From an uncultured Candidatus Saccharibacteria bacterium (GTDB taxonomy: Bacteria > Patescibacteriota > Dojkabacteria > J137), in contig CAYTGI010000005.1 in NCBI GenBank assembly GCA_964437465.1, positions 5,203 to 69,202 of the forward strand: DNA of 64,000 nt. The letters run 5' to 3'. Positions 30,199 to 62,910 of the stretch are shown here, piece after piece. Under the pieces are notes generated by a model. The model saw only the letters and a list, made by a program, of their open reading frames with translations. It did no database searches and had not been told where the DNA came from. Each line of letters opens with the position of its first letter. Position 1 is the stretch's first letter. Made by a program: the position numbers and the translations under genes.

Positions 30199-30313
30199 AT
30201 CAACAAAATAATAGCATTTTATAGATATTTTGTCATTAAATGCTCGTTGAAGCCTAAGTATGAAAATACTTAGAAAATGGTTGATATGAAACACGAAAGA
30301 AGCATAATTCTTT

Positions 30314-30369
30314 GGTACGTTGGTACGTTGGTACGTTGGTACGTTGGTACGTTGGTACGTTGGTACATG
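30314..30369. repeat. (GGTACGTT)x6 + GGTACATG octamer tandem repeat
   Basis: Perfect tandem copies between TA modules. Confidence 0.9.
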
Positions 30370-30390
30370 AATACACCTCTACTAGTTAAA

Positions 30391-38900: not shown

Positions 38901-39394
38901 AAGAAAAGGTTGATCTTTATGATGGAAGAACTGGAGAGAAATTTGATCAAAAAGTAGTTGTTGGGCAAAAATATGTTCTAAAGCTAGACCACCTTGCAGA
39001 TCATAAGGTTCACGCAAGATCTACAGGTCCATACACTCTTGTCACACAACAACCTCTAAGAGGAAAAGCACAGATGGGAGGACAGAGACTTGGAGAAATG
39101 GAAGTTTGGGCATTACAAGCACACGCAGTACCTAATCTACTTCATGAGATTTTAACAATTAAGTCTGATGATGTTGTTGGAAGAGCTGCAGCTTATAAAG
39201 CAATTATTTCTGGACAACCAATTAAATCACCAAATGTTCCAGAATCATTCAATGTTCTTGATAAAGAGTTAGCAGGATTGAATATTAAGATGGATAAGAT
39301 TGACGCTGAATACGATTTTGAGAAAGCTGACATGGCTTTAGAGGAAATTGTTGATTCAGTTGGAAATGATACATCTAGTGAGAAAAGTGAGTAA
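35975..39394 (+). CDS. rpoB: DNA-directed RNA polymerase beta subunit
   Basis: 1139 aa with conserved rpoB blocks throughout. Confidence 0.95.
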   Translation: MTPKKRLVLTDNPVDLIDIDLLEAQKKFFREFIENGFEELFDEINPIEDYTGSSWSLSFEDVNWEDAKLGFREAHNLGLSHDAPVFVTVKLVNKRTGEMKKQKIFLCDMPLMSNRASFMVNGNERVVVFQIIRSEGILFSEAKASSPAKKIFSVKLMPNRGKWYEFEMNKYGVMSVKLLEKRPRILLTTLLRAMGYGTDEELKKILESSDVGEIKYLENTLRKDPTKSTEEALIEIYRKLRPEDSITLENARAFLDNMFFNKRRFYLGKIGRYKLNQKLGFTEDIKMEDHLLKKKDLVEIVKALMELNNGTRPMDDIDSLGNRRVRGINEIVSEKIRVGMLIMEKNIRDRMSTYSTDEKVTPAMLVNTKPVIAAINQFFGSSALMRYMDQENILSELEVKRKVTAGGPRGLTKERATFSVRDVHDSHYGRLCPVTTPEGPSVGMVNQLAVYSKINDFGFLEAPYYKVVKEFSVKEDKVSDFKGRYIREDIKDGSKVLAKKGDEISTKVVEAAKKADLDVIHLVPFISDKIEYMDSETEATFKIAPYNVERDENNNILSESTYIRYNKDYTTASPIDIDYIDISPSQISGLGLALIPFAGNDDPNRTFYGAKTQNQAVPLIKNQSPIVGTGFEKAAAKASGRTVIAEEDGIVLEADSAHVVVEYGSGKGKRKQEYDVEKFIRTNQNTCFTQTTLVLPGEKFKKGDILIDGPCTDQGELALGVNLRACYMVWDGYNYEDGIVISERLVKEDALTSIHIHEYTQEVRETKLGNELITKDIPGVGERALRNLDEEGVVRIGANVESNDILVGIIAPKGETELTAEEKLLRAIFGEYARDVRDNSLRMPYGEEGVVVGVQVLERAKGAKLNPGVLKQVKVWVARTHKISVGDKLTGYHGEKGLIAKIVPEEDMPYTADGRPVDLVLGPASMIRRMNLGQLIETHIGALADQLGIKVEAQPFSSYSLDPLLEEAKKAGLKYEEKVDLYDGRTGEKFDQKVVVGQKYVLKLDHLADHKVHARSTGPYTLVTQQPLRGKAQMGGQRLGEMEVWALQAHAVPNLLHEILTIKSDDVVGRAAAYKAIISGQPIKSPNVPESFNVLDKELAGLNIKMDKIDAEYDFEKADMALEEIVDSVGNDTSSEKSE

Positions 39395-39471: not shown

Positions 39472-42400
39472 ATGTTAAAAGACTTTAATGCAGTAAAGAT
39501 CTCAGTTGCAAGTCCACAGGACGTAATGAACTGGTCCCATGGAGAGGTAACTAAAGCTGAGACAATAAACTATAGAACATTCAGAGCAGAACCTGGAGGT
39601 CTTATGGCTGAAGAGATCTTCGGACCAACAAAGGACTTCGAATGTTACTGTGGGAAATACAAAAAAATTAGATACAAAGGTATTGTTTGTGATAGATGTG
39701 GAGTTGAAGTAACTCACAAAAGAGTTAGAAGAGAGCGAATGGGGCATATTAAATTAGCAGCTCCAGTTACTCATGTTTGGTTCTCTAATGGAATTCCAAA
39801 TAGATTAGCTTTGATTTTAGATATTCCTCAGAAAAAACTTGAAACTGTAATTTACTACGCTCGATACGTTGTTACAGGAGTAAATGAAGAGGAACAGAAA
39901 GCTGCAATAGAAAGTCTTGATGAACTAAAGAAAAATGAAATCACTGAACTATCAGATGAGTTAGAGCAGAAAATTAAAGATATTGAAGAAGAGTTTAAAC
40001 AGTTAGCAGAAGATATTAAAAAGGAAAATAAAGAGGAAGGAAAACAAAAACTTCAGTTAGATAGAAATGAAAACTCAAGAAAGAAAGAAATTGCCCGAAT
40101 AAAGGCTGCATACAAACAAAAACAAGATAATACTGATAAAAAATTCGGAAACATTAAGTCTTTAATTGAAGATATTAAATTAGGATTTACTCTTTCAGAA
40201 GAAGAACACTCAATGTTAGAGGAATATGAATTCTTCTTTTACGATGCTGGAATGGGAGCTGAAGCAATTAAAGAACTTCTTGATGTTTTAAATATTGATG
40301 TTGAAGTTGCTGAGCTTGAAGAGACAATGAAGACAACTAAGTCTCAACTTAAGAAATCTAAGGTTATCCAAAGAATTAGAATTCTTAAGGGACTTAAAAA
40401 ATCAGGTGTAAATCCATCTTGGTTGATTCTAAATGTACTACCTGTAATTCCTCCTGATCTAAGACCAATAATTCAGTTACCTGGTGGTAGATTTGCAACT
40501 TACGATCTAAATGATTTATATAGAAGAGTTATTAACAGAAACAATAGGTTACAAAGACTTATTAATCTAGGCGCACCTGAGATCATTTTAAGAAACGAGA
40601 AAAGAATGCTACAAGAGTCTGTAGACTCTCTTCTTGACAATAACCATAAACCAGGCGCACCTGCACTAAATACAAGGCAGATGCCTTTCAAATCTCTGTC
40701 AGACATGTTGAGAGGAAAACAAGGTAGATTTAGACAGAATCTTCTTGGTAAACGAGTTGATTATTCAGGTAGAGCTGTAATTGTAGCTGGACCAGATCTT
40801 AAATTCGATGAGTGTGGACTTCCAAAGAATGTTGCACTTGAATTATTTAAACCCTTTGTAATTAGAGAGTTGATTGAAAGAGGTCATGCAGCTAATCCAA
40901 CTAGAGCAAAGATGATTTTTGAAGCTAAGGATCCTGAAGTTTGGGATATCTTAGAAGATGTAATTCAAGATAGGCCTGTACTTTTGAATAGAGCTCCATC
41001 TCTACACAGGTACTCTATTCTTGCATTCTATCCTAAATTGATTGAAGGTAATGCGATTAGACTACACCCGATGGTAGTGCAAGGATTCAACGCTGACTTC
41101 GACGGAGATCAAATGGCGGTACACCTTCCATTGTCAGACAAGGCAGTTGAAGAAGTTAAGGAGAGAATGTTCGCAAAAGACAATATGTTGGCATTAAGAG
41201 ATTCAACTCCAATTGTTAATGTGTCTAAAGACATGGCTATGGGAATTTATTTCCTTACTCAGATGAAAGGGGATGAGAAAGATGTAAAAAGAACATTTGC
41301 TAATGATGAGGAATTGCTAACTGCTTACAAGCTAGGCATAGTTAAATTCTATGATCCTGTTAAGTTACTAAGAAATGGAGAGATTTTAATAACTACAGCT
41401 GGAAGATTGATATTTAATAGAATACTTCCGGAAGACTATCCATATCAAAACAAAACATTTGGAAAAGGAGATATTGCTGATCTTTCAGCTGATCTTTTCC
41501 TTAAATACGGTCAAGATATCTCAATTGGGGTACTTGATAAAGTAAAGAACCTTGGATTTGATTATGCAACTGAGTTAGGTATCTCAATATCAATGGGCGA
41601 ATTCAGATTTAAAGATAAGAAATTTGTGGAGGATAAATTAGCTGAATATGAAAAGAAAGAACAAGCTCTGCTAGATGATTATTATGATGGAATGATTACA
41701 TCTAAAGAACTAAAAAGACTTAAACAAGATATCTGGTCAGAACATACTGACGAAATTCAAGACCAATTATGGGAAGATGCAAGAGCTGATGAAAATGCAA
41801 GTAATCTAATAGGAATTAATGATTCTGGAGCTGTTCCTGTAGGATGGGCTATGAAACAAATAGCTGGAGTACGAGGATCAGTTTCAAACATGGACGGAGA
41901 GATAGTATCTCTTCCTCTTAAAGGAAACTTTGAAAGAGGTTTAAATAATTTTGAATACTTTGTCGCATCTAAGGCTGTTAGAAAGTCTATGTCTGATGTT
42001 GCTTTGAAGACAGCTGAATCAGGTTATCTAACTAGAAGGCTTGTCGATGTTTCTCAAGATATCATTACAAGAATTGATGATTGCGGTACTGATGATGGAA
42101 TCTGGGTTTCAAGAGTTGATTCAGCTAAACAAATGAGTTTTGAATCAAGAGTGAAAGGAAGATATGCAGCAGAAGATATCAAAGATAGTAAAGGAAATGT
42201 AATTGTTGAGAAAAATGAAGTAATTACAGTTGAAAAAGCTAAACAGATATCCAATGAGGAAAAAATAGAAAAGGTATTCTTAAGAAGTCCGTTAAAGTGT
42301 AGAGTACCTCACGGATTATGCGTTAAATGTTATGGGTATGATAACGGTACTGGAAAACCAGTTGCAATTGGTGAGGCTGTAGGAATAATTGCTGCCCAAG

Positions 42401-43431
42401 CACTTGGGGAGCCTACAACTCAGCTAACACTAAAAAGTAAGTCAGACGCTAGATCAAGAAAATCCGATGTTACTCAAGGTCTTCCTAGAGTTGAAGAACT
42501 TCTTGAAGCTAGAACTCCAAAAGCATTGGCAGAATTAGCTGACATTGATGGTAAGATCTCAATTATTGAAGACAAGAAAAAAATTATTATTAGAATTACT
42601 GCTAAAAAAGAAGAAGTTAAAGAGATTGAGCTTGAGGAAAAGGATGAAGTTATTGTTAAAGATAAAGCTTCGGTAAAAACTGGAGAGACTCTTGTTGTAA
42701 AAGGAGATAAAAGCGAGGTAAGAGCACCTTTTACTGGTAAAGTAAAAGTTACAAAAGGTAAGGTTACACTTCACGTTAAAAAAGATATTGAAATCGAAAA
42801 GAAAGTTGATTCAATGGCTAATGTATTAGTCCATGATGGTCAAGAAGTTAAGAAAGGTGAACAGTTAACTTTTGGATCTATCGATCCTAAAGAGCTAGCA
42901 TCTTTAAAAGATGTAGAGATTGCACAGAGGTACATAATTGATGGTGTTCAGAGCGTTTATGGAATTCAGGGTATGGAAGTTGATGATAGACACCTTGAAA
43001 TAGTTGCAAGACAGATGACAAGATACGTCTTAATTAATGATAGTGGAGACAGTGAGGCTCATTTACCTGGTGATTATGCTGACGTACTAGAAGTTGAGGC
43101 AGAGAATCTGAAACTTCAAGAGGATGGTAAAGCTCAAATAAAGTATGAAAGAGTACTAATGGGTATTACTAATTCATCCATTCGAACAGAGAGCTTCTTG
43201 TCTGCAGCTTCATTCGAACAGCAGGTTAGAGTTCTAACAGACGCTGCTTTAATCGGGAAGGTAGACCACTTGAGAGGATTGAAGGAAAATGTTATAATAG
43301 GTAGACCTGTTCCACTGGGGAAAGTCTTACTAGAGCAAGATTCGAGTGAAGTCCAAAAAGCTGAGGAACAAACAGCAATTATGGATGCACATGAGAGAAA
43401 ATCACAAAATGATTTAAATAAAGCAATATAA
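39472..43431 (+). CDS. rpoC: DNA-directed RNA polymerase beta' subunit
   Basis: Zn-finger [32 protein letters not shown], and a lineage-specific coiled-coil insertion. Confidence 0.95.
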
Positions 43432-43439: not shown

Positions 43440-43886
43440 ATGGCAAGAATATCGCAACTAACAAGAAAACCTAGAAAACAAAAGAATGCTTTGGTTAGAT
43501 ACAAAGGTCTAATGCTTTCTAAGAATACGAAATACAAGGCACTACAGTTCAACTATAATGGTGTTCAGAATAAATTCTATAAGAAATCTAACCCATTTAA
43601 GAGAGGTGTGTGTATTGCAGTTAAAACTATGACTCCTAAGAAACCTAACTCTGCTCTTCGAAAAATAGCTAGAGTAAGACTTTCTAATAAGCAAGTTGTA
43701 ACTGCATACATTCCCGGTGAAGGACATAACCTTCAAGAACACAGTGTTGTATTAGTAAAAGCAGGAAGACGACCCGATCTTCCTGGAGTAAAGTACAAAG
43801 TAGTAAGAGGTGTATATGACGCAGCTCCTGTAGAAGCAAGAAGACAAGCAAGAAGTAAGTTTGGAAATAAGAAGCCAAAGGCCTAA
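43440..43886 (+). CDS. rpsL: 30S ribosomal protein S12 (with a ~24-aa N-terminal insertion)
   Basis: [23 protein letters not shown] and [10 protein letters not shown]. There is extra sequence between RKPR and KRGVC. Confidence 0.9.
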
Positions 43887-43972
43887 ATATCCCCCCCTGA
43901 AGTAGAAACACTTCAGGGGAAAAATTGACAATTAAATTACTGGAGAATAAGAGTATTCAGTAAGGAAGTATA

Positions 43973-44000
43973 AAACTTACCTTACGGTAAGTTTTTTTTA
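43973..44000 (+). terminator. Rho-independent terminator after rpsL
   Basis: aaaacttacc-ttac-ggtaagtttt followed by a T-run; preceded by a GC hairpin at 43893-43919. Confidence 0.6.
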
Positions 44001-44016
44001 TTTATAAAAAACAATT

Positions 44017-44628
44017 ATGAATGAGCATCAAGAAAACACAAGAAGATACTACGATGAAAATGCTGTTAGATGGTCAGATAGGAAGAATCATATGCCAGAT
44101 ACAAGCTTCTATAGGGAAGAGTTAGATCGATTTGATGAATTAGCAGAAGGATCAGTTCTTGAGGTTGGTGTAGGTAATGGAAAAGAATCGGCTATTCTAT
44201 CTCAGAATCATGAATATACTGGTGCTGATATATCTGAAGGAATGATTCGAACAGCAAGAGAATATCAGCCACACTTAGAATTTGTACAAGCGAGTGTTAC
44301 TGACTTGAAGTTTGAGGATGATTCTTTTGACAACTTTTTTACTGCTGCTACTCTACTACACATTCCTAGAGTAGAAATGCCCAAAGCACTATCTGAAATA
44401 CGGAGGGTTGTGAAAAATAACGGTATTGGATTTATTAGTTTAAAAGAAGGTGAAGGGGAAGAGGTGCGAGAAAATGAAAATGGAAGGTATTTTTCATTTT
44501 TTAATTCAGATGAATTTAGAGGCATTCTTGAAGATAATGGATTTGAGGTTATAGAATCTGGAGTTAAACCTGATAATAGAGAAGGTAAACCTAATTGGTT
44601 AACTTTTTTTGTAAGAGTAACTAAATAA
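44017..44628 (+). CDS. Class I SAM-dependent methyltransferase (Methyltransf_11-like) inserted between rpsL and rpsG
   Basis: VLEVGVGNGKESAIL motif I, DLKFEDDSFD. Confidence 0.65.
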   Translation: MNEHQENTRRYYDENAVRWSDRKNHMPDTSFYREELDRFDELAEGSVLEVGVGNGKESAILSQNHEYTGADISEGMIRTAREYQPHLEFVQASVTDLKFEDDSFDNFFTAATLLHIPRVEMPKALSEIRRVVKNNGIGFISLKEGEGEEVRENENGRYFSFFNSDEFRGILEDNGFEVIESGVKPDNREGKPNWLTFFVRVTK

Positions 44629-44678
44629 TTTATATTTTATAAAGCTAAAGGCTAACAACTAATAGCTTAAAGCTCAGA

Positions 44679-45146
44679 ATGAGAGGAAAACAAGCTCCAA
44701 AAAGAGAAATAAAACCGGATGAAATCTACGGTTCAAAAATGGTTTCAAAACTAATTAACTATATTATGAAAGATGGTAAGAAAGCTATTGCAAGAAAGAA
44801 TGTTTATTCTGCAATGGAACTTCTTGAAAAAGAAACAAAAACTAAAGCTTTGGAAGCTTTAGAGAAAGCAGTTAATACTGTTAAACCAAAAATTGAGGTG
44901 AGATCGAGAAGGGTCGGTGGGTCAAACTACCAAGTGCCTGTTCCTGTTCCAGAAGATAGGCAAACTGCTCTAGCATTTAGATGGATTATTGAAGCTGCTA
45001 GAAATAACAGAGGAGGTGCAGAATTCTACAAAGCACTTGCTAGAGAACTAAAGGATGCTTTTAACGGAGAAGGTAACGCTGTAAGAAAGAGAGACGAAGT
45101 TAAGAAAATGGCAGAGGCAAACAAGGCTTTTGCACAGTTTGCATAA
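44679..45146 (+). CDS. rpsG: 30S ribosomal protein S7
   Basis: 155-aa basic protein; RRVGGSNYQVPVPV. Confidence 0.9.
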   Translation: MRGKQAPKREIKPDEIYGSKMVSKLINYIMKDGKKAIARKNVYSAMELLEKETKTKALEALEKAVNTVKPKIEVRSRRVGGSNYQVPVPVPEDRQTALAFRWIIEAARNNRGGAEFYKALARELKDAFNGEGNAVRKRDEVKKMAEANKAFAQFA

Positions 45147-45167
45147 AAAGACAGTTATCAACATTAA

Positions 45168-45197
45168 AAAGGGGAGTTGTATACTCCTCTTTTTTTA
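45168..45197 (+). terminator. Rho-independent terminator after rpsG
   Basis: ggggagt-tgtat-actcctc followed by T7. Confidence 0.6.
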
Positions 45198-45294
45198 TTG
45201 ATCATATTAGCTGGAAACTCTATACTAAATTAGGTACTAAAATATTTATGCGTACCAAGAATATAGAAATAAAGCACCCTATTTGGGGTGCTAA

Positions 45295-48200
45295 TTTAAG
45301 ACGTACACTTTTAACGTTTATTTCGCATGCTTAGTTTTTTTACTATCAGCATCTAGTATTGAGGCTGCAAGCAATACAATAGATTTTCAAGGAAAGATAG
45401 TGAATAAAGGTGATGGAACGAATTTAGTGTCTGGAAGTCCTGCATGTGTAGTAGTTGGGGCAGATACTTGTGATTTTAGAGTAAGAGTTTACGATGCTTC
45501 TAGTGGTGGAAACTTACTTTTTGAAGAAGAACATACAAATTTAGAGATTGGAGATTACAATGGGATTTTTAATTTAAGTATTAATAGTATCTGTGCTTCT
45601 ACTCTGAGTGGTGGAGTTGATTGGGGAACAGGAGGATGTATTAGTAACGGTTGTGTAGATTTTAGTAGTACTAATGTGTATTTTGAGATAAGTTTTCACC
45701 TGCAGGAGATTCTACATACACAGAAACATTTACAAGAAAACAAATTAGCCAGACACCAAGCGCATATTATGCTGAAAGAGCGGGGAGTGTTGGTGATTTA
45801 AATGGATTTAATGAAACTGATTTTGTTCAGTTTGGTCAGGGTAGTACTCAAACAAGTACAAATACTAATGGTTTAATTAATATAACAACTACAGGTAATG
45901 TTGTTAGTCCTTTAATATTTCTTAATGAAAACTGGGCAGGTACTCCCCTACTTTTAGATTTACAGGAAGGGGGATCGACTCAATTCAGTATAGGAAATAA
46001 TGGAGTAATAACTTCTGATTCTTTAGCTGGAGGAGGGGTTCAATGTTTACAGTCAGATAACAGTGGGATAATCTCAGCTACGGGTTCAGCATGTGCGGGA
46101 AGTTCTCCCTGGACAATAGATATGAGTGACATTTACTATAACGGAGGAAATGTTGCTATTGGAACTGGAGCCCCAGGAGCCACTTTATTCCACGTTCAAG
46201 AAAATACTACAGGTTTACCAACATTTGGAAGCGACACTTCCTCTGCCTTTTCAAGTATTAATGACACGTATTTAGCTATAATTTCGGGAGCGGCGAATAT
46301 ATCTGGAATTAATTTTGGAGACAATAGTGATGAAAATCCTGGAATAATAGCGTATAACAATGCTTCAGATTCATTTGTGTTTACAACTGGAACATCAACA
46401 GCATTGACAATAGCTTCTGGGGGAGGACTTACTGCTAATAGTTTGGCTGGAGGTGGAACACAATGCTTGCAAGTAGATAATGCTGGATTAATTGCTGGAA
46501 GCGGTTCAGGATGTGCAACAAGTCTATGGACAGATGGAGGAACAACTACCTACTTAACTTCAACAACAGATGATGTTGCATTTGGAGGAACTGGAGGCTC
46601 TTCTCCATTCTTCTTTGATGTAAGTGATCCGTCGATAAATATTAATAGCACACAGGTTTTATACCTTCCAGATCAAACTACATTTGCGGGATCTTTGATT
46701 ATTGGTAATGGTGGGACTAGTTTGAGTACCTCCACTAATTCTACAGGTGTTGGTATTGGAGCTTTAACTAGCCTTTCATCTGGATCAAGTAACACAGCTG
46801 TTGGAACAAATTCATTGACATTAAACTCTACTGGAGCAACTAATGTTGCTATAGGAGCATCAGCTCTGTCTGGAATTGCTGATGGTTTTGCAAATGTTGC
46901 AGTAGGTACATTTTCAATGGAATTAAAGTCATCAGGAAATCACAATATAGCAATTGGAGGGCAATCGATGTATAGGAGTTTTTCAGGTGCAAATAATATA
47001 GCAGTTGGATCCTCCGCACTATATAATAATAGTTCAGATTCAAATGTGGGTATTGGATATAATGCAGGCTATAGAGTTAATGGAGATGATAATATTATTA
47101 TTGGAGATAATGCAGGAGCAGGTATTGGGTCATCGACAACTACGTACTCAATAAGTAATAACGTCTTGGTTGGGACAAGGGCAGGTCAGATAATGGGTAC
47201 TAATGCTAACAATAATATTTTAATTGGACATCAAGCAGGTAATAATTTATCTATTGGAGCTAACAATATTGTAATTGGGTATGACATCGATGCACCAAGC
47301 TCTTCAGGCTCAAATAGAATGAGTATTGGGAATATAATCTATGCAACAGGAGTTGATGGCACAGGGACAACAGTAAGTACAGGAAATCTTGGAATTGGGA
47401 TTGCAAATCCAGATAGTAATACTGAACTTCATATATACGATCCAGGAAACACAATACTGGGTATACAATCTGGGGCTCAGTCTATATGGGGTATAGAATC
47501 CTTATCAGCTTCTAATGCCATGAGGATTGGTAATTTAAATGGGGCTGTCCTAAACAATCATGTATATATAACTTCAGGAGGTAATGTTGGGATTGGGGAT
47601 GTTCCTTTAGATAAGCTACATGTATTTGGAGATGCTAGGGTTGGAACAGGAACAACTGGTTGTATTAAAGATGCAGATGGCACTACTATAGCAGGTACAT
47701 GTAGCTCTGATTTGAGATTAAAGGAAGAAATTAGAGGATTTGATTCAATATTAGAAAGATATGTACAATTAGAACCTGTATTTTATAAATGGCGATCTGA
47801 AGAATTCCCTGAATTACATCTTGGAACTAGTGAAATTAGTGGGTTAATTGCACAGAATGTTGAACAATTATTTCCAGAACTAGTTGCATATGATGAAGAT
47901 GGATTCAGACAAATTAATTTTTCAGCGATAGACTTTTATACAATTCAAGCAATAAAAGAACAGCAAGAACAAATTGATAGCTTACAGGCTCAACTGGCAA
48001 GTATTAGTAGTAATCCACCTGGATCACAACCATTAGAACATGCAATTTTAAACAATCTAACAATTAGAGAAAACTTGAACATAGAAGGAAAATTGAATCT
48101 TGCTGATGACTCAGCTGATGTAATAGAAATTCCTGCAGGAGATGTTGAGTTTTCTTATACATTTAACACCGCTTACTCCTCTACTCCTATTGTATCTATA

Positions 48201-48341
48201 ACTCCAATTTCTGAAGAGGTGCTTAGTGAAGGTATCGTTTATATTGTAACTAATTCTGATCAAAACGGTTTTACTATAAAATTAAATCAACCAGCATCAG
48301 TTAATATCTCTTTCAACTGGACTGCTTTTGGGGACCTTTAA
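45295..48341 (+). CDS. Giant tail-fibre-like surface protein, paralog A (frameshifted at the T4 run 45694-45697; no canonical start)
   Basis: The N-terminal domain is paralogous to 48421-53124 (GKIVNKGDGTN...CDFRVRVYDASSGGN). Reading T5 at 45694-45697 joins it to ORF 46122-48341. Contains Gly-rich N-x-A-I/V-G repeats and a C-terminal S74-like intramolecular chaperone motif, SDLRLKEEI...GLIAQNVE. Confidence 0.5.
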
Positions 48342-48420
48342 ACTATCCACATAAACTTTTCATTTCAAAATATTGAAGTTAGAAAAATTAATACCTATAC
48401 TAATATAGGCACATTTTTAT

Positions 48421-51400
48421 ATGTGTAGAGTAATGAATCAGATTAGTAACATAAAGCGTAAAAACAACGCTCTTTATTCAGGGTCTAAAAAAAGGCCTGT
48501 TTTAGCTCGTCAACACAAGTTTGCTATTCCATTAGCAATTTTATCTGGACTGCTATTTTTATTATTTATTCTTATAAACACAGGAGGGTTATATTCTTTC
48601 TTAAATATTTTCGCTGCTACAAGAACTATAAATTTTTCAGGAAAGATTGTTAATAAGGATGATGGAACTAATGTTGTTCTTGGTGATCCTGCTTGTGTTT
48701 TAGCAGGAGCAGATACATGTGATTTTAGAGTTAGAATTTTTGATGCAATAAGTGGAGGAAATCAGCTTTTCCAAGAAGATCATAATGATATTGAGATTGG
48801 TGATTTTACAGGAATATTTACTCTTGATATTAACTCAATTTGTAATTCTCAGGTAGTTGGAACAGTAGACTGGGCTACAACAGCTTGTGTAAGTAACGGA
48901 GGAGTTGATTTTAGTAGTTCAAGTATTTATATAGAGATCTCATTTTCTCCAGCTGGAGATGGAACTTATACTGAGGTTTTTGGAAGACGGGCTTTTAGTA
49001 ATACAGCGAGTGCATTTTTTGCCGAAAGAGCTGGAAGTTTGAATGGATTGACTAGTGATGATTTTGTTCAGCTAGCACAGGGAACCACTCAAGTTAACAG
49101 TGATGATTTTAGCTTAATAGATATTGAGACAACAGGAAATTTAACTGATCCTCTAATTGTTGTTAATGAGAATGGAGCGGGAACTCCTGACCTTTTTGAT
49201 TTTCAAGTGGGGGGGGACTCGATATTTACTTTAGATAACGATGGATTATTATCACTGTCAAATGATCAAGGGGTAACGAATTTAAGTATTGAAGAGTCAA
49301 ATGCAACTAACGATAACCGTACTTTATTAAGTTTAATAAACAATGGAGGAGCTATAATTTCTTTGGAAGATACTGATTCTTCAACGCAAGCTTGGAATAT
49401 CATAGGTAGTGATGAATTTACTATAAAGAACGATGCGACACCCGCAAATGACTTATTAAAAATCGATGATTTAGGCAACGCCTACATGTTTAATGGACTT
49501 ACTATTAATGATGGTTTTGATTCTTCTACAATCTCAGCTATTTTAAACTTTGGAGGCGCAAATACTGAAACAATTGAGTGGTCAGCTCCTAACAGTAGAT
49601 TTGAAATCTCCGACGATTTAGATGTGTTTAATAGCTTAACTGTAGGTGATAGTGTTGGAATTGGTACTCAAAGTCCTTCAGAAGCTTTAGATGTTGTGGG
49701 ATCTGTTCAGCTAAGTGGTGATATAAAAACTACTAACCCTTCTCAGTTATTACCAGCAAATTCTTTAGACTATGTGAAAAACATTCCTAATTCAAGAGGA
49801 GGAGTTTCAGGAGATCCAATAAGTCAGTTTGACTTTGAATTAACAGATAATGAGTACTTTTTAGTAGGAGCATTTAGTGGATCTGTTGATTTTGATACTG
49901 ATAATAGTATTCCTGGTGACACCTTAACAAGTCAAGGCACAGATGGTTTTATTGCAAAATACAATCTCAACGGAACTCTTCAATGGATAAAACAGATTGA
50001 GGGTTCATCCATTGAATCTGTCACAGAGGTAGAAACTGATTCAGCTGGAAATATATATGTCTTAGGTAATTTCTCTTCAAGTAATGTTGATATTGATCCA
50101 GATAACTCAGTTTCTGGAGATACCTTAAGTGAATCTGGAGGAAGAACATTTTTAGCAAAATATAATAGCTCAGGAGTTCTACAATGGGTTAAGCAGATGG
50201 GTCAAAGTGGATTTCTATACATAGTTGGGAATGACATGTACGTTAACGATTCAGGAGATATTCATTTCACTGGATATTTCTATGGAGGAATCTCAATAGA
50301 CTTCGATCCTGATAATGTAGTTGTTAACGATACTCATTCAACTACTAGTTTCACTGAAGGCGATGCTTTTTTAGCAAAATATAACACAAACGGTCTAATT
50401 CAATGGGTACATGCAATAGGGACAACAAATGACACCCTTCGAGACAGCGGTAAAAAAGTTTTTGCTGATTCCGGAGGAGATGTGATTCTTGTAGGTGATG
50501 CAAGTCAAGGATTATTTGATTTTGATGAATATAACGTAGGATCTGATGATACCTTTGACTTTTCGACCGGTGAAGGAATATTTATTGTTAAATATAATTC
50601 TTCTGGAGTTGCTCAATGGTCAAAAGGATTAATTGATAATGGTGGACAATTAAACTCTGGAGTAGTAATTGCTGATTCCTCAAATAATATCTACTACACA
50701 GGAGGCCTACAAGGCACATCAAATGACTTTGATGATGATAATGTTGTAGCTGGAGACACTTTAAACCAGATAAATGGGGTTGATTCATTTTTGGTGAAAT
50801 ATGACTCAAGTGGATTACTTCAATGGGCAAAAGCTTTGGATATCAGTAGAACCAATGCTTTAGACATAACACCTTCTGGAGAAGTTTTAGTTGGAGGTAC
50901 ATTTAATACGACTCCAGATTTTGATCCTGATAATGTTGTTAGCGGTGATACAGTTGCTGCAGTTGGTGTTAAAGATATATTTTTTGCTAAATACGATTCA
51001 ACAGGCCTTTTAACAGAGTTGAAAACTATAGGTACTTCAGGGCAAAATGCAAATTTATCTCATATTGCTATTGACTCAAGTTCAAATATATATACCCAAG
51101 CTTCTTACCTTGGTACTATCGATATGGACTCTGATATAGTTATTTCTGGAGATACTATTTCATCATCTACCACGAATGGATATTATATTGCTAGATATTC
51201 ATCATCTACTCAATCAATAGCAGGATCAAACATAGGATCGTCTTCTAGCCCTTTTGGAAATACATATACAAATGCTTTAAACATTTCCGCTATTACTGGA
51301 TCAACTCAATGTTTGGAGATAGACACAAATGGAAATGTATCTGGATCTGGAATTACTTGCGGAGGTCTTTGGACTGCAAACGGAAGCGATATTTACTACG

Positions 51401-53124
51401 ACTCAGGATATGTTGGTATTGGAATAACCGCTCCGACTTCACCGCTTACAATTGTTGAATCAACTAATGTATCCGCTTTAGATATTCAATCAACAGGAAT
51501 AACAGATAAACCATCTGTATCAATAAATGAGCTACCTCTCTCTGTTGATGTAAATACAGGTAAAGCACTTGAGTTTAAGGTGACTGGTGAATCTTTCGGA
51601 AGAGGAATGTTCTATTCTGACGGATCTATTGGATTTGGCGGGGGCACGGCTACAACAGATGTATTTTTAAACAGAGACTCAGCTGGAATTTTAAGGATAG
51701 ATTCAGATAAAGCTGGAGGAGCTGCTGACTTGTTAATTGAAGGAAGTCTTGGGATTGGAGACAACGTTACTCCTACAAACATGATTGACATCAATACAAC
51801 TGGGGCAACGAGGGGAATAAGTTTTGATGGACGGGTTGCAATTTCAGGTTACTCTGCTAGCTCTTACCTTTACTTGAATAATGGGAATAATTTTTCAGGA
51901 GGTGTATATGCCCCAAGCGATTTTATTGCAACTGAGATTAGAACAAGTACTACTGATTATGGGGCGTATGACATTCAGACACATGATGATTTGTATGTTA
52001 ATGATTTAGGGATATTTATGGGAGGTGTACACGTTGGAGGAACAAGTGATCCAGGAACAGATAATCTTATTGTTGATGGTAATGCCTCAATTGGTAATAC
52101 TTCTATATTAACTTCGGCCACTCTAAGGCTTGGAGATGATGGCTCGACTTATGGGCTTTTCATGGACTCCCCCAATGTTGCTACTGCCTCAACATATTAT
52201 GGATTATATGTAGACGAGATAGATGGTGGCATAACTAATAACTATGGAATGTATATTAGACCTATGACAGTATCCGGCTCAACCGCTTTTGGTGCAAGAA
52301 TTGGAGAGGTGTCAGGTGCAACTAATACCTACGGTTTATTTGTTGATGCAACATCCTCTCAAGACTACGGTGTATATATAGAAGGGTCCACAATGAGCGC
52401 TGGTCAATACTCGCTGTATGCAGAATTTGATATAAGAACTGAAGGACGATTTGAACTAGGAAATCCAGGTAGTGGAGGAGACGATGTTTGTAGAGTTGCC
52501 TCAAACCAAAGGTTATCTCTGTGTTCATCTAGTATAAGATATAAAGACAACGTTCTGGATTATTCAGGAGGATTAGATCTACTTAAACAATTTAGGTCTG
52601 TGTCTTTTGACTGGAAAGAGACAGGTATTTCGGATATGGGGTTTATTGCTGAAGAGGTTGAAGCAATAGAGCCCTTACTAGTATTTTATAGGGATGGTAA
52701 GGTTGAGGGAGTTAGATATAAACAGATGACAGCACTGATGAAAAATGCTGTTATCGAGATTGATGATAGACTTTTAGATGTCGAATCTAGATTAGATCTA
52801 CTTGCTGGAGGATCAGGAACGAGTGCTGTTACTTCCCTTACCGAAGCAATCATCACAGGAAAACTTACTGTAGATGGATTAGTTGATTTTAACGAGGATA
52901 CTGTTGCGACTGCTACAATTGGAAGTGGAGATACAGAAGTAGAGATCATTTTTAGTGAAAGCTACTCTACTCCACCTGTAATTACAGTTACACCAGAAGG
53001 TGAGGATTTTATTAATTCTGGAGTTACATATACAATTATAGATAAGGATGAGGATGGGTTTAAGATTAAGATCTCAGATCCATACACAGAAGATTTATTA
53101 TTTAACTGGCACGCATTTGAGTAA
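48421..53124 (+). CDS. Giant surface protein, paralog B: N-terminal domain, SBBP beta-propeller repeats, Gly-rich repeats, S74-like chaperone domain
   Basis: SBBP-type repeats (FIAKYNLNGTLQWIKQ, FLAKYNSSGVLQWVKQ, FLVKYDSSGLLQWAKA) and a C-terminal SSIRYKDNV...GFIAEEVEAIEP motif. The C-terminal domain is shared with paralog A. Confidence 0.6.
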   Translation: MCRVMNQISNIKRKNNALYSGSKKRPVLARQHKFAIPLAILSGLLFLLFILINTGGLYSFLNIFAATRTINFSGKIVNKDDGTNVVLGDPACVLAGADTCDFRVRIFDAISGGNQLFQEDHNDIEIGDFTGIFTLDINSICNSQVVGTVDWATTACVSNGGVDFSSSSIYIEISFSPAGDGTYTEVFGRRAFSNTASAFFAERAGSLNGLTSDDFVQLAQGTTQVNSDDFSLIDIETTGNLTDPLIVVNENGAGTPDLFDFQVGGDSIFTLDNDGLLSLSNDQGVTNLSIEESNATNDNRTLLSLINNGGAIISLEDTDSSTQAWNIIGSDEFTIKNDATPANDLLKIDDLGNAYMFNGLTINDGFDSSTISAILNFGGANTETIEWSAPNSRFEISDDLDVFNSLTVGDSVGIGTQSPSEALDVVGSVQLSGDIKTTNPSQLLPANSLDYVKNIPNSRGGVSGDPISQFDFELTDNEYFLVGAFSGSVDFDTDNSIPGDTLTSQGTDGFIAKYNLNGTLQWIKQIEGSSIESVTEVETDSAGNIYVLGNFSSSNVDIDPDNSVSGDTLSESGGRTFLAKYNSSGVLQWVKQMGQSGFLYIVGNDMYVNDSGDIHFTGYFYGGISIDFDPDNVVVNDTHSTTSFTEGDAFLAKYNTNGLIQWVHAIGTTNDTLRDSGKKVFADSGGDVILVGDASQGLFDFDEYNVGSDDTFDFSTGEGIFIVKYNSSGVAQWSKGLIDNGGQLNSGVVIADSSNNIYYTGGLQGTSNDFDDDNVVAGDTLNQINGVDSFLVKYDSSGLLQWAKALDISRTNALDITPSGEVLVGGTFNTTPDFDPDNVVSGDTVAAVGVKDIFFAKYDSTGLLTELKTIGTSGQNANLSHIAIDSSSNIYTQASYLGTIDMDSDIVISGDTISSSTTNGYYIARYSSSTQSIAGSNIGSSSSPFGNTYTNALNISAITGSTQCLEIDTNGNVSGSGITCGGLWTANGSDIYYDSGYVGIGITAPTSPLTIVESTNVSALDIQSTGITDKPSVSINELPLSVDVNTGKALEFKVTGESFGRGMFYSDGSIGFGGGTATTDVFLNRDSAGILRIDSDKAGGAADLLIEGSLGIGDNVTPTNMIDINTTGATRGISFDGRVAISGYSASSYLYLNNGNNFSGGVYAPSDFIATEIRTSTTDYGAYDIQTHDDLYVNDLGIFMGGVHVGGTSDPGTDNLIVDGNASIGNTSILTSATLRLGDDGSTYGLFMDSPNVATASTYYGLYVDEIDGGITNNYGMYIRPMTVSGSTAFGARIGEVSGATNTYGLFVDATSSQDYGVYIEGSTMSAGQYSLYAEFDIRTEGRFELGNPGSGGDDVCRVASNQRLSLCSSSIRYKDNVLDYSGGLDLLKQFRSVSFDWKETGISDMGFIAEEVEAIEPLLVFYRDGKVEGVRYKQMTALMKNAVIEIDDRLLDVESRLDLLAGGSGTSAVTSLTEAIITGKLTVDGLVDFNEDTVATATIGSGDTEVEIIFSESYSTPPVITVTPEGEDFINSGVTYTIIDKDEDGFKIKISDPYTEDLLFNWHAFE

Positions 53125-53765
53125 TGGAAAGATTTGGAATTTATAAATTACTATACGGAATATCGGTAATTCTCTATATATTATTCTTAAACTTTGGGTT
53201 TATCGATTCAATAATAACAGGGTTATTTATTGTTGGTACTATTTACCTAATCTTCACAAGAGAAGAAAGTCCTGACGAGGAGGAAGATGAAATTTATATT
53301 CCTGAGGTTCATTTCTATGCTACAGAAAGATACAACCCCTACACATATTCAATGACAATTATCGCAGTTATTATAGCTATGGTGTTTTATATACTTCAAT
53401 TCTTAACAGATATAAGAATCGGGTTAATTGCTTTAGCACTTTGGCCAATATTAATCATTGCAGGAATCTTTATTCAAAAAAGAGTAAATCAAAATTTGGA
53501 GCTGTTTCAAATTGTCAATTTTATTAGTTTAGTTTTACCTGAAGATGAGGATACTATGAAGCTTATAATTCGTAAGATAGAAAAAGAGGGTTTTGTTGAA
53601 GCAAGTGAAATTGACGAACTTCTGCAAGAAAATACCGACTGGCCTAATAATATAAGAAAAAGATTCATCAACAGGTATTTGGAGTATTCAGATTTTTTAG
53701 CGAAGCCAGAGACAGACAGATTGGTTAGCGGTGAGATCGAGGAGCTGAATGAAGAAAGAGCTTAG
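53124..53765 (+). CDS. Membrane protein (hypothetical)
   Basis: 213 aa with several TM helices. Confidence 0.35.
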   Translation: MERFGIYKLLYGISVILYILFLNFGFIDSIITGLFIVGTIYLIFTREESPDEEEDEIYIPEVHFYATERYNPYTYSMTIIAVIIAMVFYILQFLTDIRIGLIALALWPILIIAGIFIQKRVNQNLELFQIVNFISLVLPEDEDTMKLIIRKIEKEGFVEASEIDELLQENTDWPNNIRKRFINRYLEYSDFLAKPETDRLVSGEIEELNEERA

Positions 53766-59295: not shown

Positions 59296-62200
59296 CTACC
59301 ACCTAGTATAAAGTAAACTCTCATGATCACCCTCCTCTTTTGGAATCTCCTGCCAGATCCTTTCACTAATAAAAGGCATAAACGGATGGAGCATTTTTAG
59401 ATATTCTTTAAGAGCAAGTAATAGAACTTTTTGAGCTTCTCTCTTCTCTTCTGGTTTAGCCTCACTAATAATTTCACCAGTTTCTTTATCCTTGAATGTG
59501 TAGATGAATGGTTTTAATGCTTCAATGTATACGTCAGCGAACTCATGCCAGAATCCTTGGTATAAATTATAAGTTGCATGTCCGAATTCAAACTCTTCAA
59601 TATTTTTTGTTATATGTTCTTTAGTCACCTTTACATGCTTAAATAACTTTTTTATTTCTTTAATTTTTAAATCACTCTCCTCTACTCCATAAACTGAGTG
59701 ATCAGCTTTATCCATATCCTCTAAATTCATTAGAACAAACCTTGAAGCATTCCAAATCTTATTGGCAAACTTTTTAAATGTATCTAATTTCTCATGAGTC
59801 ATAGAATAATCTCCTCCAGCTGAGTTTTGGTAGAAGAACACCATTCTAATTGCATCAGTACCGTACTTCTCTCTTAGATCATCAATATACAAAATATTAC
59901 CTTTAGACTTACTCATCTTCTGTCCATCGCTTGCCTTAACAAGACCTGTTAGGAAAAGATTTTTAAAAGGAATATTTCTGTATTTAAAGTAAGTAAACAT
60001 CATCATTCGACTATCCCAATTCTCTAGAATGTCATAAGCTGAAACTAAAACATCACTTGGGAAGAATGTATCCATTAAGTCATATTTACTTAATGTAGCG
60101 TAAACCCACTGACCAGAGCTGAACCAAGTGTCGAGAACGTTTTCGTCTTGGTTCCATTCGGAAGTTGTAAGTTTTGAGTTATGAGTTTCGAGTATTGAGA
60201 ATAGCTTCTCAGAGTAACTACTTGAGTCTTCAGATGCATAATGACCTTTACCTTTTTCTAAGATTACTTGGTCAGCGTTAACTAATTCACCAAATTTTTT
60301 AAACTCTTCTACTGTTCCATGCCGATCATTATCTGAGTGTATTATTATTATTTCTCCGACATATTTTCTTATGTTTTCATAATCTTCAGTTTCTGTTATT
60401 AGTTCTACATATTTACTATCCTTACCATCTTCTCTTGGAACCATTCTGATTCCTGGAGCAAGCATAATTAACTTATTTACTTTAATTTTATTTTCTAAAC
60501 AATATTTAATAAATGCTCTAGCACCAAGAGAATGAGTAACTATTATATCCTTATCAGTAAATTCTATATCATCAAAACCTTCTTTGTAGAATTTATATTC
60601 AGGATTATGAATATTCTTTACAGGAATAATCTCAGTATTATCAAACTTTGCCTCAATCTCTGGATAAATATCTCTGTATGCATAGCCATGTTTCCCAGGT
60701 ATTAAAATAATCTTGCTGTCTGATAACTTGTCAGGACTTTCTTTCTGTACTCTTAAATGATTAGGATTATCGTACTCAAGCTCTACCCACTCATCAGTAC
60801 CTGAAATTTTAATCATCTCACGGACTTGACCGTCAGATCCGATATCTTCTTTAACTTCGCCATGGTACCAAACAGGAAGTCTATAACCCCACCATAATGA
60901 TCTCGATATCGCCCAGTCTCTAAGGTTATTCATCCAGTGGTTATATTTTGAAGTCATTGATTCAGGGTGTAGGGTGATTGCTAACTTATCTGAATCTTTT
61001 TGAGAGGACAAACCATGGTTTGTCCCTACAAGCTTAGAGGAAGCGTTAAATATTTCAATTGCCTGATCAATTTCTTTATCACTCATATCTAAATTAGAAT
61101 CATCTCCATGAACATTTTTAATCATCTTTATAGCAGCTTCTCTAATTCCGTCATATTTTAAGTACCACTGAGAAGATAGGAGAGGCTCGATTGGAGCTTT
61201 TGTTCGCTCAGCTATTTGAATTCTATTTTCATATTTCTCATCAACAAAAACTAAGTTTCCATGTTCCTTCATATCGGGACGCATCTCTTCTCTTGCATTC
61301 TTAGCCTTAATTCCTGAGTATTTCCCAGCAAGGTCATTAAGCTTTAAATCGTAGCCAATAACTTGGATTGCAGGTAAACATTCTTTAGGATGTCTTTGAC
61401 CTATCTCCCAATCCTCTGGAGAGTGGGCAGGGGTAACTTTTAGAAGACCTGTTCCAAAGTCTTTATCTACAGCATAGTCAGAGATAAAGTTTAGCTTTTT
61501 CTTTTCTCCTAAGAACTCAACCTCAATTTCTTTTCCAACAAAATCTTTATATCTTTCATCTTTTGGATCGCACGCGATAGCAGTATCAGCAAAAATAGTC
61601 TCAGGTCTTACAGTTCCAATTACAAATCCATTTCGATAATACTTATCTTCTGAATACTCTTCGAACTTAATTATGTGCGAGCCTGGATAATACTTTGATT
61701 CAAAGTTAAAAATCTCAAAGATTTCTGAATCAAGATCTTCATCAAAGCTCTCGTTAACTATGACGATTTTGTAATTTTCATCTAAGCTCATATGAACTCC
61801 GATTGCTTTTCCAGTTACATCATTATCAATATCTTCGTCAGTGTATCCAATTCCGATAACAGGTAGTCCTTCCTCAGTTTCTCCATGCATAAATGGAAGA
61901 TCATTTTTCTTGTCTTTTGTTTTATTTCTTAATGCTTTAAATGCGACATTTTTGCCTTCATACTTTTGTTTTATCTCCAAAACTTCTTTGACTGGTTCTC
62001 CAATTAAATATTTAAAGTAGAAAAACGGAGTAACTGAATCTTTATACTCTACCTGATTATCAGCAACTGCTGATCTAGCTTTTGGATCCCAATTTACTAA
62101 CCGAACTCCTTTATAGATCATTCCATCTTTATACATTTCAATGAATGTATCTAAAACAATCTCAACAATATCTGGATCAAGGGTAAATGTATTTTTATCA

Positions 62201-62664
62201 AAATCTGCAGAAAGTCCAATATCTTGTTCATCCTTTAAAGCTTGCTCCATGTTCTGCTCAAAAAACTCCATCATCATTTCGTAGAACTTTTCTCTTTCTA
62301 GATCAAATTTATTAATCTTTTTCTTTTCTAGAACTTCTCTAACAAAAACTCCTTCTCCCTCTAATCCTGCGTGATCTTTTCCAGGTAGAACTAAAACTTT
62401 TTTTCCTTTCATTCTTTGATATCTAGCCATTGCATCCATGTATGCGTACCCAGAAATATTACCAATATGTGGTCTTCCGTAAGCATTAGGTGGAGGACAG
62501 ATTAGAGACCAAGCTTCTCGTTTATCATTTTTCATCTCTTCCTGTGAAAGAACTTTATTTGAATTAGGATCAAACTCAGGTTTATACATTCCTGATTCCA
62601 TCCATTTTTTTATTAAGTCTGCTTCGTGGTCTTTTGCGTTGTATCCTCCTTTTGGTAGTGCCAT
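59296..62664 (-). CDS. valS: Valyl-tRNA synthetase with an inserted alpha/beta serine-hydrolase domain (start ATG 62664 or TTG 62670)
   Basis: HIGN (PPPNAYGRPHIGN), CP1 editing motifs (TVRPETIFADTAI, GTGLLKVTPAHSPEDWEIGQRH), DWAISRSLWWGYRLPVWY, DTWFSS and KMSKSKGN. About 240 extra residues between PVWY and DTWFSS carry THSLG and HSDNDRHG...GKGHY hydrolase motifs. Confidence 0.85.
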   Translation of the reverse strand: MALPKGGYNAKDHEADLIKKWMESGMYKPEFDPNSNKVLSQEEMKNDKREAWSLICPPPNAYGRPHIGNISGYAYMDAMARYQRMKGKKVLVLPGKDHAGLEGEGVFVREVLEKKKINKFDLEREKFYEMMMEFFEQNMEQALKDEQDIGLSADFDKNTFTLDPDIVEIVLDTFIEMYKDGMIYKGVRLVNWDPKARSAVADNQVEYKDSVTPFFYFKYLIGEPVKEVLEIKQKYEGKNVAFKALRNKTKDKKNDLPFMHGETEEGLPVIGIGYTDEDIDNDVTGKAIGVHMSLDENYKIVIVNESFDEDLDSEIFEIFNFESKYYPGSHIIKFEEYSEDKYYRNGFVIGTVRPETIFADTAIACDPKDERYKDFVGKEIEVEFLGEKKKLNFISDYAVDKDFGTGLLKVTPAHSPEDWEIGQRHPKECLPAIQVIGYDLKLNDLAGKYSGIKAKNAREEMRPDMKEHGNLVFVDEKYENRIQIAERTKAPIEPLLSSQWYLKYDGIREAAIKMIKNVHGDDSNLDMSDKEIDQAIEIFNASSKLVGTNHGLSSQKDSDKLAITLHPESMTSKYNHWMNNLRDWAISRSLWWGYRLPVWYHGEVKEDIGSDGQVREMIKISGTDEWVELEYDNPNHLRVQKESPDKLSDSKIILIPGKHGYAYRDIYPEIEAKFDNTEIIPVKNIHNPEYKFYKEGFDDIEFTDKDIIVTHSLGARAFIKYCLENKIKVNKLIMLAPGIRMVPREDGKDSKYVELITETEDYENIRKYVGEIIIIHSDNDRHGTVEEFKKFGELVNADQVILEKGKGHYASEDSSSYSEKLFSILETHNSKLTTSEWNQDENVLDTWFSSGQWVYATLSKYDLMDTFFPSDVLVSAYDILENWDSRMMMFTYFKYRNIPFKNLFLTGLVKASDGQKMSKSKGNILYIDDLREKYGTDAIRMVFFYQNSAGGDYSMTHEKLDTFKKFANKIWNASRFVLMNLEDMDKADHSVYGVEESDLKIKEIKKLFKHVKVTKEHITKNIEEFEFGHATYNLYQGFWHEFADVYIEALKPFIYTFKDKETGEIISEAKPEEKREAQKVLLLALKEYLKMLHPFMPFISERIWQEIPKEEGDHESLLYTRW

Positions 62665-62910
62665 GTTCAAAGTATAAAAAGTACTTATGTACTTAAGTAC
62701 CTAGGTACTTGTGTACTATATATTCTTTGAGGACTACTCAATGGCAGTGGTACCACCTCTATTTCCCGATGAAGAATCGGAACACTTATTACAGCTATTT
62801 CGGGCATACCCGGAGGATTTTACTACTTTCGGTTCTTTCCTCAGCACACCTGTGACAAGCAAGTGTATTGCTTAACAGATTATATCTTAGTTTTTTACTA
62901 CGTGCCAGAA

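Follow-up and report, generated by a model that had tools for sequence, protein, structure and literature searches.

The mosaic adhesive trimer (MAT) fibers of the predator Bdellovibrio bacteriovorus, 21 in number (Caulton et al. 2024, PMC10769870), are built from a conserved beta-rich domain that directly adjoins the signal peptide, a mosaic body that is trimeric, and ends that either bear an S74 domain with the SDxxxK motif or are of a non-S74 kind; no fold match in the PDB was reported for their N-terminal domain (PMC10769870). The MATs listed from other organisms belong to predators and to an Omnitrophica bacterium, with no Patescibacteria among them (PMC10769870). We found no literature linking S74 or MAT with Patescibacteria. 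Here, we analyze two neighboring genes, A (45248-48341) and B (48421-53124), encoded on the forward strand of a 64-kb stretch of DNA (contig CAYTGI010000005.1; referred to as the window), to which strand all features of A and B given below belong. We consider it likely that A and B are chromosomal genes of an uncultured, ultrasmall bacterium of the Dojkabacteria (WS6; Patescibacteria, CPR) that encode members of a large family of secreted, mosaic surface fibers resembling phage tail fibers. From their sequences, they look like a patescibacterial variant of the MAT fibers, to which they are apparently distantly related.

As in the MAT fibers Bd3182 and Bd2133, a signal peptide in A and B is followed by a conserved beta-rich N-terminal domain without a solved structural relative. 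A long tail-fiber-like body, interchangeable distal modules, and several paralogs per genome are found both among MATs and in the family of A and B, and so is the division into a subgroup with the S74 SDxxxK chaperone/protease, which is terminal in MATs, and a subgroup without it. MAT producers depend on contact with other bacteria, and the same is assumed for Dojkabacteria. There are also differences from MATs. The N-terminal domain is only remotely similar (A and B score 18-26 bits, the cut-off being 60 bits), the producer belongs to Patescibacteria and is not a Gram-negative predator, and the S74 domain of A and B lies ahead of a coiled coil and a conserved, lectin-like beta-sandwich and does not form the protein end. 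Moreover, B contains an internal seven-bladed propeller, and the proteins of the A/B family are larger, reaching 3965 amino acids.

The individual modules of A and B have counterparts in other systems. The S74 chaperones of phages (K1F endosialidase 3GW6, T5 pb1 4UW8/8HQZ, S16 fiber 6F45) are like those of A and B in matching PF13884, in the Ser-x4-Lys dyad and the G(F/L)IAQE motif, in having a long helix after a beta part, and in their position at the end of a tail-fiber-like body. Unlike these phage proteins, A and B appear to be cellular and Sec-secreted, not parts of a virion, and about 100 more residues (a linker and the beta-sandwich) follow the chaperone. Among fold matches, the S74 part of B came closest to the ICA domain of MyRF (7DC3), a eukaryotic membrane-bound transcription factor in which a membrane anchor, and not a lectin-like domain, follows. 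As MyRF has further sequence after its self-cleaving domain, it is a precedent for an S74 domain that is not C-terminal. The last ~80 residues are similar in fold to H-type lectins (2CCV, discoidin II) and to tailspike sandwiches (Pam1 7EEA, LKA1 gp49, K1 lyase), which are trimeric in the known proteins; the likeness to H-type lectins is one of fold, at about 19% sequence identity, and, unlike in these lectins, the domain sits beyond a predicted self-cleavage site. The SBBP propellers (PF06739) of Leptospira LipL53 lipoproteins and of CylK (7FH8) have, like B, seven blades with the (F/I)xAKY(N/D)xxGxxxW pattern, but the propeller of B is embedded in the middle of a fiber and its Pfam score is just under the threshold.

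The N-Terminal Domain and Its Family

B is a single intact open reading frame (ORF) for 1567 amino acids, the protein length given in an initial annotation of this DNA. Its putative signal peptide (residues 1-65, 48421-48615), recognized in the sequence itself and by comparison with AxA sites in aligned relatives, consists of a long basic n-region, a hydrophobic core, and a predicted cleavage site between IFA and AT. The conserved N-terminal domain with its four Cys follows (residues 66-282, 48616-49266). In A, which would encode about 1031 amino acids if two frameshifts described below are bridged, the corresponding Cys-containing domain (residues 41-256, 45367-46013) starts directly after a predicted site between IEA and AS. 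An alignment of nine sequences shows that the domain begins directly after AxA-type signal-peptidase sites, contains four invariant Cys, and carries the motif NFQGKIV...G.P.CV..GADTCDFRV.IY.

BLASTP aligned A and B only at their ends, namely in the N-terminal domain (A 32-256 with B 57-278, 59.6% identity, E = 1e-71) and in the C-terminal module (A 819-1028 with B 1368-1566, 24.8% identity, E = 3e-25), the bodies being unrelated. The initial description of A and B as a pair of related giant tail-fiber-like surface proteins, with N- and C-terminal domains in common, is borne out. Relatives of B in a large protein collection share only its first ~220 residues (42-67% identity, covering 11-17% of B), and the best named one comes from a metagenome-assembled genome (MAG) of Candidatus Dojkabacteria.

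An exhaustive search with a profile of the N-terminal domain, in which family members were counted as clusters at 50% identity, gave 1040 clusters at E <= 1e-3, 272 at E <= 1e-10, and 121 at E <= 1e-30. The domain lies almost always at residues ~30-250 of proteins of 800-3965 amino acids. With one genome per species taken into account, 26 genomic loci with the domain were found, in Dojkabacteria/WS6, in MAGs labeled 'uncultured Saccharibacteria', in other Patescibacteria, and in one MAG labeled Gammaproteobacteria; at five of these loci (L003, L006, L016, L020, and L026), two or three fiber genes stand side by side. A census of the ends of 125 family proteins of at least 600 amino acids revealed S74 in 33, followed by the sandwich in 24 of those 33, a sandwich end without S74 or a G2-like motif in 21, a different motif in 13, and other or undetected ends in 58. 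The N-terminal domain defines a large, Patescibacteria-centered family of mosaic proteins.

In P0031, P0035, P0039, P0043, P0044, and other relatives, the place of S74 is taken by a module of the form FD(L/V)AEEY...RPVALAGRVPVKV..ENG.I..GD, after which come a coiled coil and a related C-terminal sandwich with the terminal sequence ...F(D/N)Y(L/W)IIN. The FDLAEEY...RPVALAGRVPVKV module may be an autochaperone of the phi29 gp12/Peptidase_G2 type, a suspected relationship for which Pfam gave no match in P0035 or P0039. Another recurrent element is a short two-Cys module, (L/I)xGG(G/S)xQCLxxDxxGxxxxxGxxC, usually followed by LWTxxG..(T/I)Y. It occurs at residues 263-300 and 403-440 of A (window ~46032-46560) and 954-1000 of B (~51280-51420), is repeated many times in relatives such as P0002, and looks like a reusable joint between fiber segments.

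The model of the N-terminal domain (predicted local distance difference test, pLDDT, 78) is beta-rich and had no fold match in the PDB or among viral structures. The NCBIfam profile Bdello_MAT_N (NF053851, mosaic adhesive trimer family chimeric fiber protein), whose curated cut-off is 60 bits, matched A with 20.6-26.1 bits (best E = 6.4e-6, at 26 bits) and B with 18.1 bits (E = 0.0018). It also matched 8 of 9 and 33 of 38 family N-terminal domains (best E = 7.3e-12), and all these matches were below the cut-off. By these profile scores, A and B are outside the Bdellovibrio subfamily as defined by NCBI. The organization of the family is MAT-like: the N-terminal domain is constant, bodies and tips are swapped, S74 and non-S74 subgroups exist, and there are several paralogs.

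Fiber Bodies, the S74 Domain, and the Lectin-Like End

The body of B contains a seven-bladed SBBP-type beta-propeller at about residues 479-940 (49855-51240), delimited by motif and profile matches. Its blades are of the type FxAKYNxxGxLQWxK and are spaced by 64-73 residues, five of them being canonical (at residues 510, 577, 650, 721, and 790) and two degenerate (near residues 854 and 922), in agreement with the six or more SBBP repeats originally counted. The Pfam SBBP model PF06739 scored 17.6 bits, just below its gathering score of 20.5 bits; PF13884, the other Pfam family proposed at the outset, passed its own threshold in both proteins (see below). The propeller of B was matched by the NCBIfam profile Lepto_SBBP_lipo with E = 2.2e-33, and by the CylK propeller among PDB sequences with E = 5e-12.

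The N-x-A-I-G repeats, which the initial annotation had assigned to both proteins, are confined to A; none were found in the body of B. A motif scan located ten consecutive N-x-(A/I)-(I/V)-G copies at residues 516-690 of A (46791-47315), with a period of 17 residues (16-18). PHROGs families of tail-spike and virion-structural proteins matched this region at 2e-16 and 1.4e-18. No sequence relative of it was found in the PDB, and Pfam reported no YadA/Hep_Hag-type match in it.

PF13884 (Peptidase_S74, gathering score 22 bits) matched residues 821-880 of A with 39 bits and residues 1370-1419 of B with 31.8 bits. Together with the helix that follows, the S74 domain occupies 47706-47990 in A and 52528-52806 in B, where it was delimited by Pfam, alignment, and model, and where the helix is 30 residues long. 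The Ser-x4-Lys dyad is intact in both proteins (A S821-DLRL-K826, B S1370-SIRY-K1375). In an alignment of 18 family members, its Ser and Lys show at least 90% conservation and align with SDERLK/SDRRIK of solved fibers. The S74 consensus given in the initial annotation fits SDLRLK...GLIAQNVE of A and SSIRYK...GFIAEEVE of B, but its K(E/D)N(I/V) part does not describe A, which reads KEEI. A profile of the 18 members matched the solved tail fiber 8jov at 1.1e-12, the long tail fiber distal subunit 6f45 at 3.4e-12, MyRF 7dc3 at 5.3e-9, and the T5 L-shaped fiber 8hqz at 1e-7, upholding the original recognition of an S74 chaperone domain.

The AlphaFold model of B 1340-1567 (pLDDT 83), which like our other structure models is a monomer, consists of a small beta part, a 30-residue helix (model residues 94-123), a disordered linker, and a well-predicted beta-sandwich of ~80 residues. 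Foldseek matched the two folded parts separately to PDB entries. The S74 part matched the MyRF ICA domain 7dc3 (E = 2.7e-3, TMt 0.57), consistent with the S74 assignment first made from the motif, while 3GW6 gave a poor global match only. The sandwich (residues 1487-1567, 52879-53121, pLDDT >90) matched the six-stranded beta-sandwich of Helix pomatia agglutinin 2ccv with E = 1.4e-3, probability 1.00, and a modest TMt of 0.51. Further matches were SLL-2 and discoidin II as well as tailspike and R-pyocin fiber C-terminal domains (Pam1, LKA1 gp49, Sf6, and PA0620). A similar H-type-lectin/tailspike C-terminal-like sandwich is predicted in A (48078-48338) by alignment and family profile matches.

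With the sandwich of B alone, Pfam H_lectin (PF09458) gave 19.6 bits (E = 0.001), below its cut-off of 24 bits. Sub-threshold H_lectin matches (E <= 1) were obtained for 16 of 32 family sandwiches, the best at E = 1.3e-5, and K1-lyase_C matches for 4 of the 32, the best at 5.7e-7. A word-indexed search gave seven matches with the C-terminal module and no match with the beta-sandwich alignment. As judged by profile matches and by the predicted model, the S74 domain of A and B is genuine yet non-terminal, and a coiled coil and an H-type-lectin/tailspike-like beta-sandwich come after it. The conserved lectin-like domain past the predicted cleavage site may be a trimerization clamp similar to tailspike sandwiches, it may be a lectin that is shed, or cleavage may be absent.

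Alternatively, A and B might not be adhesins but surface-anchored tailspike-like enzymes (polysaccharide depolymerases), or envelope proteins of an S-layer or a sheath, that cut or build glycans. Trimeric tailspikes with the same kind of beta-sandwich end are often depolymerases (K1 lyase, LKA1 gp49, Sf6), the sole solved relative of the propeller is the enzyme CylK, and at locus L007, the slot after rpsG holds a gene for a secreted protein of 636 amino acids whose N-rich repeats appear right-handed beta-helix-like by eye. However, no catalytic domain or motif was recognized in A or B with Pfam, NCBIfam, or PHROGs, and SBBP propellers occur widely in surface lipoproteins without enzymatic function as well, LipL53 among them. 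Moreover, extreme mosaicism combined with a constant N-terminal domain and tandem copies is a signature of recognition proteins. We regard an enzymatic or envelope function in place of adhesion as rather unlikely.

Chromosomal Setting and the State of Gene A

The window is a segment of a bacterial chromosome with a low G+C content (about 0.33-0.36). The fiber genes A and B are flanked upstream by rpoB (35975-39394), rpoC (39472-43431), rpsL (43440-43886), and rpsG (44679-45146), all taken from the window ORF list, and downstream by genes for NifU, an MFS transporter, and a nucleotidyl transferase; the annotation of the window revealed no phage genes in these flanks. A fiber gene is located downstream of rpsG also in Dojkabacteria HKST-UBA13 (L007) and HKST-UBA09 (L015), with which RpoC, RpsL, and RpsG of the window share 82%, 87%, and 77% identity, respectively. 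At locus L002, the order is fiber gene, membrane protein (45% identity), NifU (59%), and MFS transporter (62%). A and B are chromosomal genes and not a prophage, and they are syntenic with genes of other Dojkabacteria MAGs.

The possibility that A and B are prophage remnants or a phage-derived tail-fiber cassette, and not a cellular surface system, has to be weighed since the closest annotated relatives of the S74 domain and of the repeats of A are phage tail fibers, tail spikes, and virion proteins, and since the C-terminal sandwich resembles tailspike C-terminal domains. Contrary to that, A and B lie among housekeeping genes, an arrangement syntenic with that of three other MAGs, and both proteins start with a signal peptide. 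A tblastn search against 50,697 phage records matched the S74 and SBBP regions only, and never the N-terminal domain or the last 100 residues. The N-terminal domain patterns had no relative in 2.9 million IMG/VR contigs, and its model had no viral fold match. A phage origin of the two genes is, in our view, highly improbable.

In the ORF lists, A appears as mere fragments (45400-45801 and 46122-48341). When the three forward frames were read, the gene could be put together from 45248-45334 (frame 2), 45295-45801 (frame 1), and 45696-48341 (frame 0), with two -1 frameshifts, one base being missing at each. The start codon, which the initial annotation had thought to be lacking, is the ATG at 45248 in a third frame. 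It lies just beyond the intrinsic-terminator-like hairpin of rpsG (45166-45194), a candidate found by its position in a consensus scan, and 22 nucleotides past a promoter-like TTGATC-N17-TATACT site (45198-45226), also a candidate by consensus match, as is TTGAAG-N17-TATACT upstream of B (48373-48401). From this ATG, the frame reads MRTKNIEIKHPIWGAN..., the basic n-region of a signal peptide, and ends at 45332. The hydrophobic core, the predicted site between IEA and AS, and the conserved domain up to its residue 110 lie in the next frame, which is open only from 45295. The remainder comprises 884 codons in the third frame, from the T-run at 45693-45696 to the stop codon at 48339-48341.

The first frameshift falls within the signal peptide, in an interval (45295-45331) that is bounded by stop codons (TAA at 45292-45294 closes frame 1, and TAG at 45332-45334 closes frame 2) and contains four runs of three or four T. 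The second is at the T4 run 45693-45696, where homology with B demands one extra base. At this site, B reads TCA TTT TCT CCA, and A reads AGT TTT (T)CA CCT; as B is one base longer at the homologous TTT-TC junction, a deletion of one nucleotide in A is indicated. The T-run frameshift noted in the initial annotation is therefore real, but it is positioned at 45693-45696 and not at 45694-45697, and it is accompanied by a second -1 shift in 45295-45331. As assembled, A is a pseudogene inactivated by two single-base deletions within its first 450 nucleotides. Should A truly be a pseudogene, it would be young; it retains the terminator- and promoter-like layout, the signal peptide, all the conserved Cys, the S74 dyad, and the open frame of 884 codons.

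It is also possible, though we think doubtful, that A is intact in the organism, with both frameshifts being local assembly or consensus errors (e.g., due to mixed strains), in which case both fibers would be made. A run of 884 open codons in a genome of 35% G+C, where by an estimate from base composition ~7% of random codons would be stops, speaks for this explanation, as does the retention of the promoter-like site, the signal peptide, the Cys, and the dyad. The fiber genes of another MAG (L002 and L017) are split as well, which hints at poor assembly of such genes. However, no other long gene of the window looks interrupted in the ORF lists (rpoB, 1139 amino acids; rpoC, 1319; a tRNA synthetase, 1124), which argues for real mutations in A and against a general indel problem. 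It would be a coincidence for a single gene to contain two errors within 450 nucleotides, T3-T4 runs are atypical as sites of short-read errors, and the NCBI collection contains B, as the identical protein P0001, and no product of A. An exact-protein look-up with B or with the 739-residue ORF of A found no other assemblies of the locus, and a metagenome scan for the exact pattern at the second frameshift, permitting T4 or T5, found no match.

Three other explanations for the state of A were considered. Programmed frameshifting was rejected, as there is no X XXY YYZ slippery site. Phase variation, one of the two readings of A in the initial annotation, is unlikely, since the runs comprise merely three or four T and the two -1 shifts do not compensate each other. 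A recent, decaying duplicate, the other reading, is likewise unlikely, as A and B have only their terminal modules in common and their C-termini are 25% identical.

The fiber gene of L002, at a site syntenic with that of A and B, has an A-like N-terminal half (64% and 58% identity) and a B-like C-terminal half (37% and 50%). Such a chimera would be the expected product of recombination between neighboring paralogs, but chimeric co-assembly could yield the same. The L002 gene (118-3742) and the L017 gene (5848-10608), both from one other MAG, binchicken_co58_69, are split by stops or frameshifts, which reflects either recombination with decay or an artifact of co-assembly.

Directly downstream of B, an ORF for a membrane protein of 213 amino acids (53124-53765, forward strand), with four hydrophobic segments recognized by eye and an acidic C-terminal tail, starts with an ATG that overlaps the last base of the B stop codon, and its 45%-identical counterpart directly follows the fiber gene in L002. 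By its position, it is possibly co-translated with B. It may be a partner of the fiber, serving as an anchor or in export, or merely a syntenic neighbor.

On the upstream side, the rpsL-rpsG pair (43440-45146) is split by a gene for an S-adenosylmethionine-dependent methyltransferase, and no gene of the size of fusA directly follows it. In L007 (5782-9723), two small ORFs lie between rpsL and rpsG, and the gene for the secreted protein of 636 amino acids stands between rpsG and the fiber gene. The slot 3' of rpsG seems to collect variable surface-protein genes.

Elsewhere in the window, a 3-kb region without long ORFs (28030-31016) contains a series of small minus-strand ORFs that by eye resemble toxin-antitoxin pairs (the antitoxins being ribbon-helix-helix/Phd-like and the toxins RelE/ParE-like) and of which some are truncated. 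An acidic protein of 416 amino acids with a signal peptide (31848-33098) is encoded in the sole G+C-rich block of the window (0.43 against ~0.33) and may have been horizontally acquired. In the class I tRNA synthetase of 1124 amino acids (59296-62670, minus strand), the match to the catalytic domain is broken into three stretches, and residues 670-813 weakly match Ser_hydrolase (22.3 bits, cut-off 22), which suggests a large inserted domain. No tRNA genes and, at the gathering score, no Rfam families were detected in the whole 64-kb window, including ribosomal-protein leaders near rpoB and rpsL.

Proposed Function and Significance

The anatomy of A, the chromosomal synteny, the size of the mosaic family, the remote link to MATs, and the S74-coiled coil-lectin-like ending go beyond the initial annotation. 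We propose the following scheme. The Sec signal peptide would be removed at the AxA-type site just before the disulfide-containing N-terminal domain, a cleavage suggested by the observed pattern. By analogy with MATs, this conserved domain would hold the fiber on the surface of the producer, with the variable body pointing outward. The beta-sandwich, the coiled coil, and the S74 chaperone would bring three C-termini into register, and the fiber would then fold from the C-terminus toward the N-terminus, as can be proposed from endosialidase, T5 pb1, MyRF, and Bd3182. The Ser-Lys dyad (A S821/K826, B S1370/K1375), observed as a motif, would cut the chain and release a fragment of ~200 residues that spans S74 together with the helix and the lectin-like domain. 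The mature fiber would display the SBBP propeller in B, or the tail-spike-like 17-residue repeats in A, to bind and possibly to degrade structures of the host cell. The role of A and B as adhesins can reasonably be inferred, and they are good candidates for proteins with which the producer would grip its host.

Several points weigh against this scheme. Homology with the MAT N-terminal domain is drawn from many weak profile matches and no single strong one, and in Bdellovibrio itself, MAT deletions were without a clear predation defect (PMC12428579). Trimer formation, surface display, self-cleavage, and binding are proposed by extension from homologs, and an epibiotic lifestyle of Dojkabacteria is assumed from other Patescibacteria. 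S74 cleavage would, moreover, discard the conserved lectin-like domain as well, which would be odd for a binding tip and could mean that these proteins are not cleaved.

A bolder proposal, which we offer tentatively and with low confidence, is that Dojkabacteria and their relatives recognize hosts chiefly through the N-terminal domain family, that this family is evolutionarily linked to the prey-recognition fibers of predators and diversifies by recombination of tandem copies, and that the fragment after the S74 cleavage site is possibly shed as a soluble trimeric lectin. If this were true, the A-like/B-like chimera of L002 would be one recombination product, A and other broken copies would act as reservoirs of sequence, and the shed trimer, composed of S74, the coiled coil, and the lectin-like domain, would act on the host surface.

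To our knowledge, every cultivated member of Patescibacteria lives attached to other microbes, and, as far as we know, the molecules by which these bacteria choose and hold their hosts are, type IV pili aside, largely unknown. A family of mosaic fibers with a constant anchor domain and swappable tips provides concrete candidates for host recognition. The occurrence of a non-terminal S74 domain followed by a lectin-like sandwich raises the question of how the chaperone works and what becomes of the released piece. Through the resemblance to MATs, predators and ultrasmall epibionts would be connected by a shared, phage-like way of recognizing the surface of another cell.

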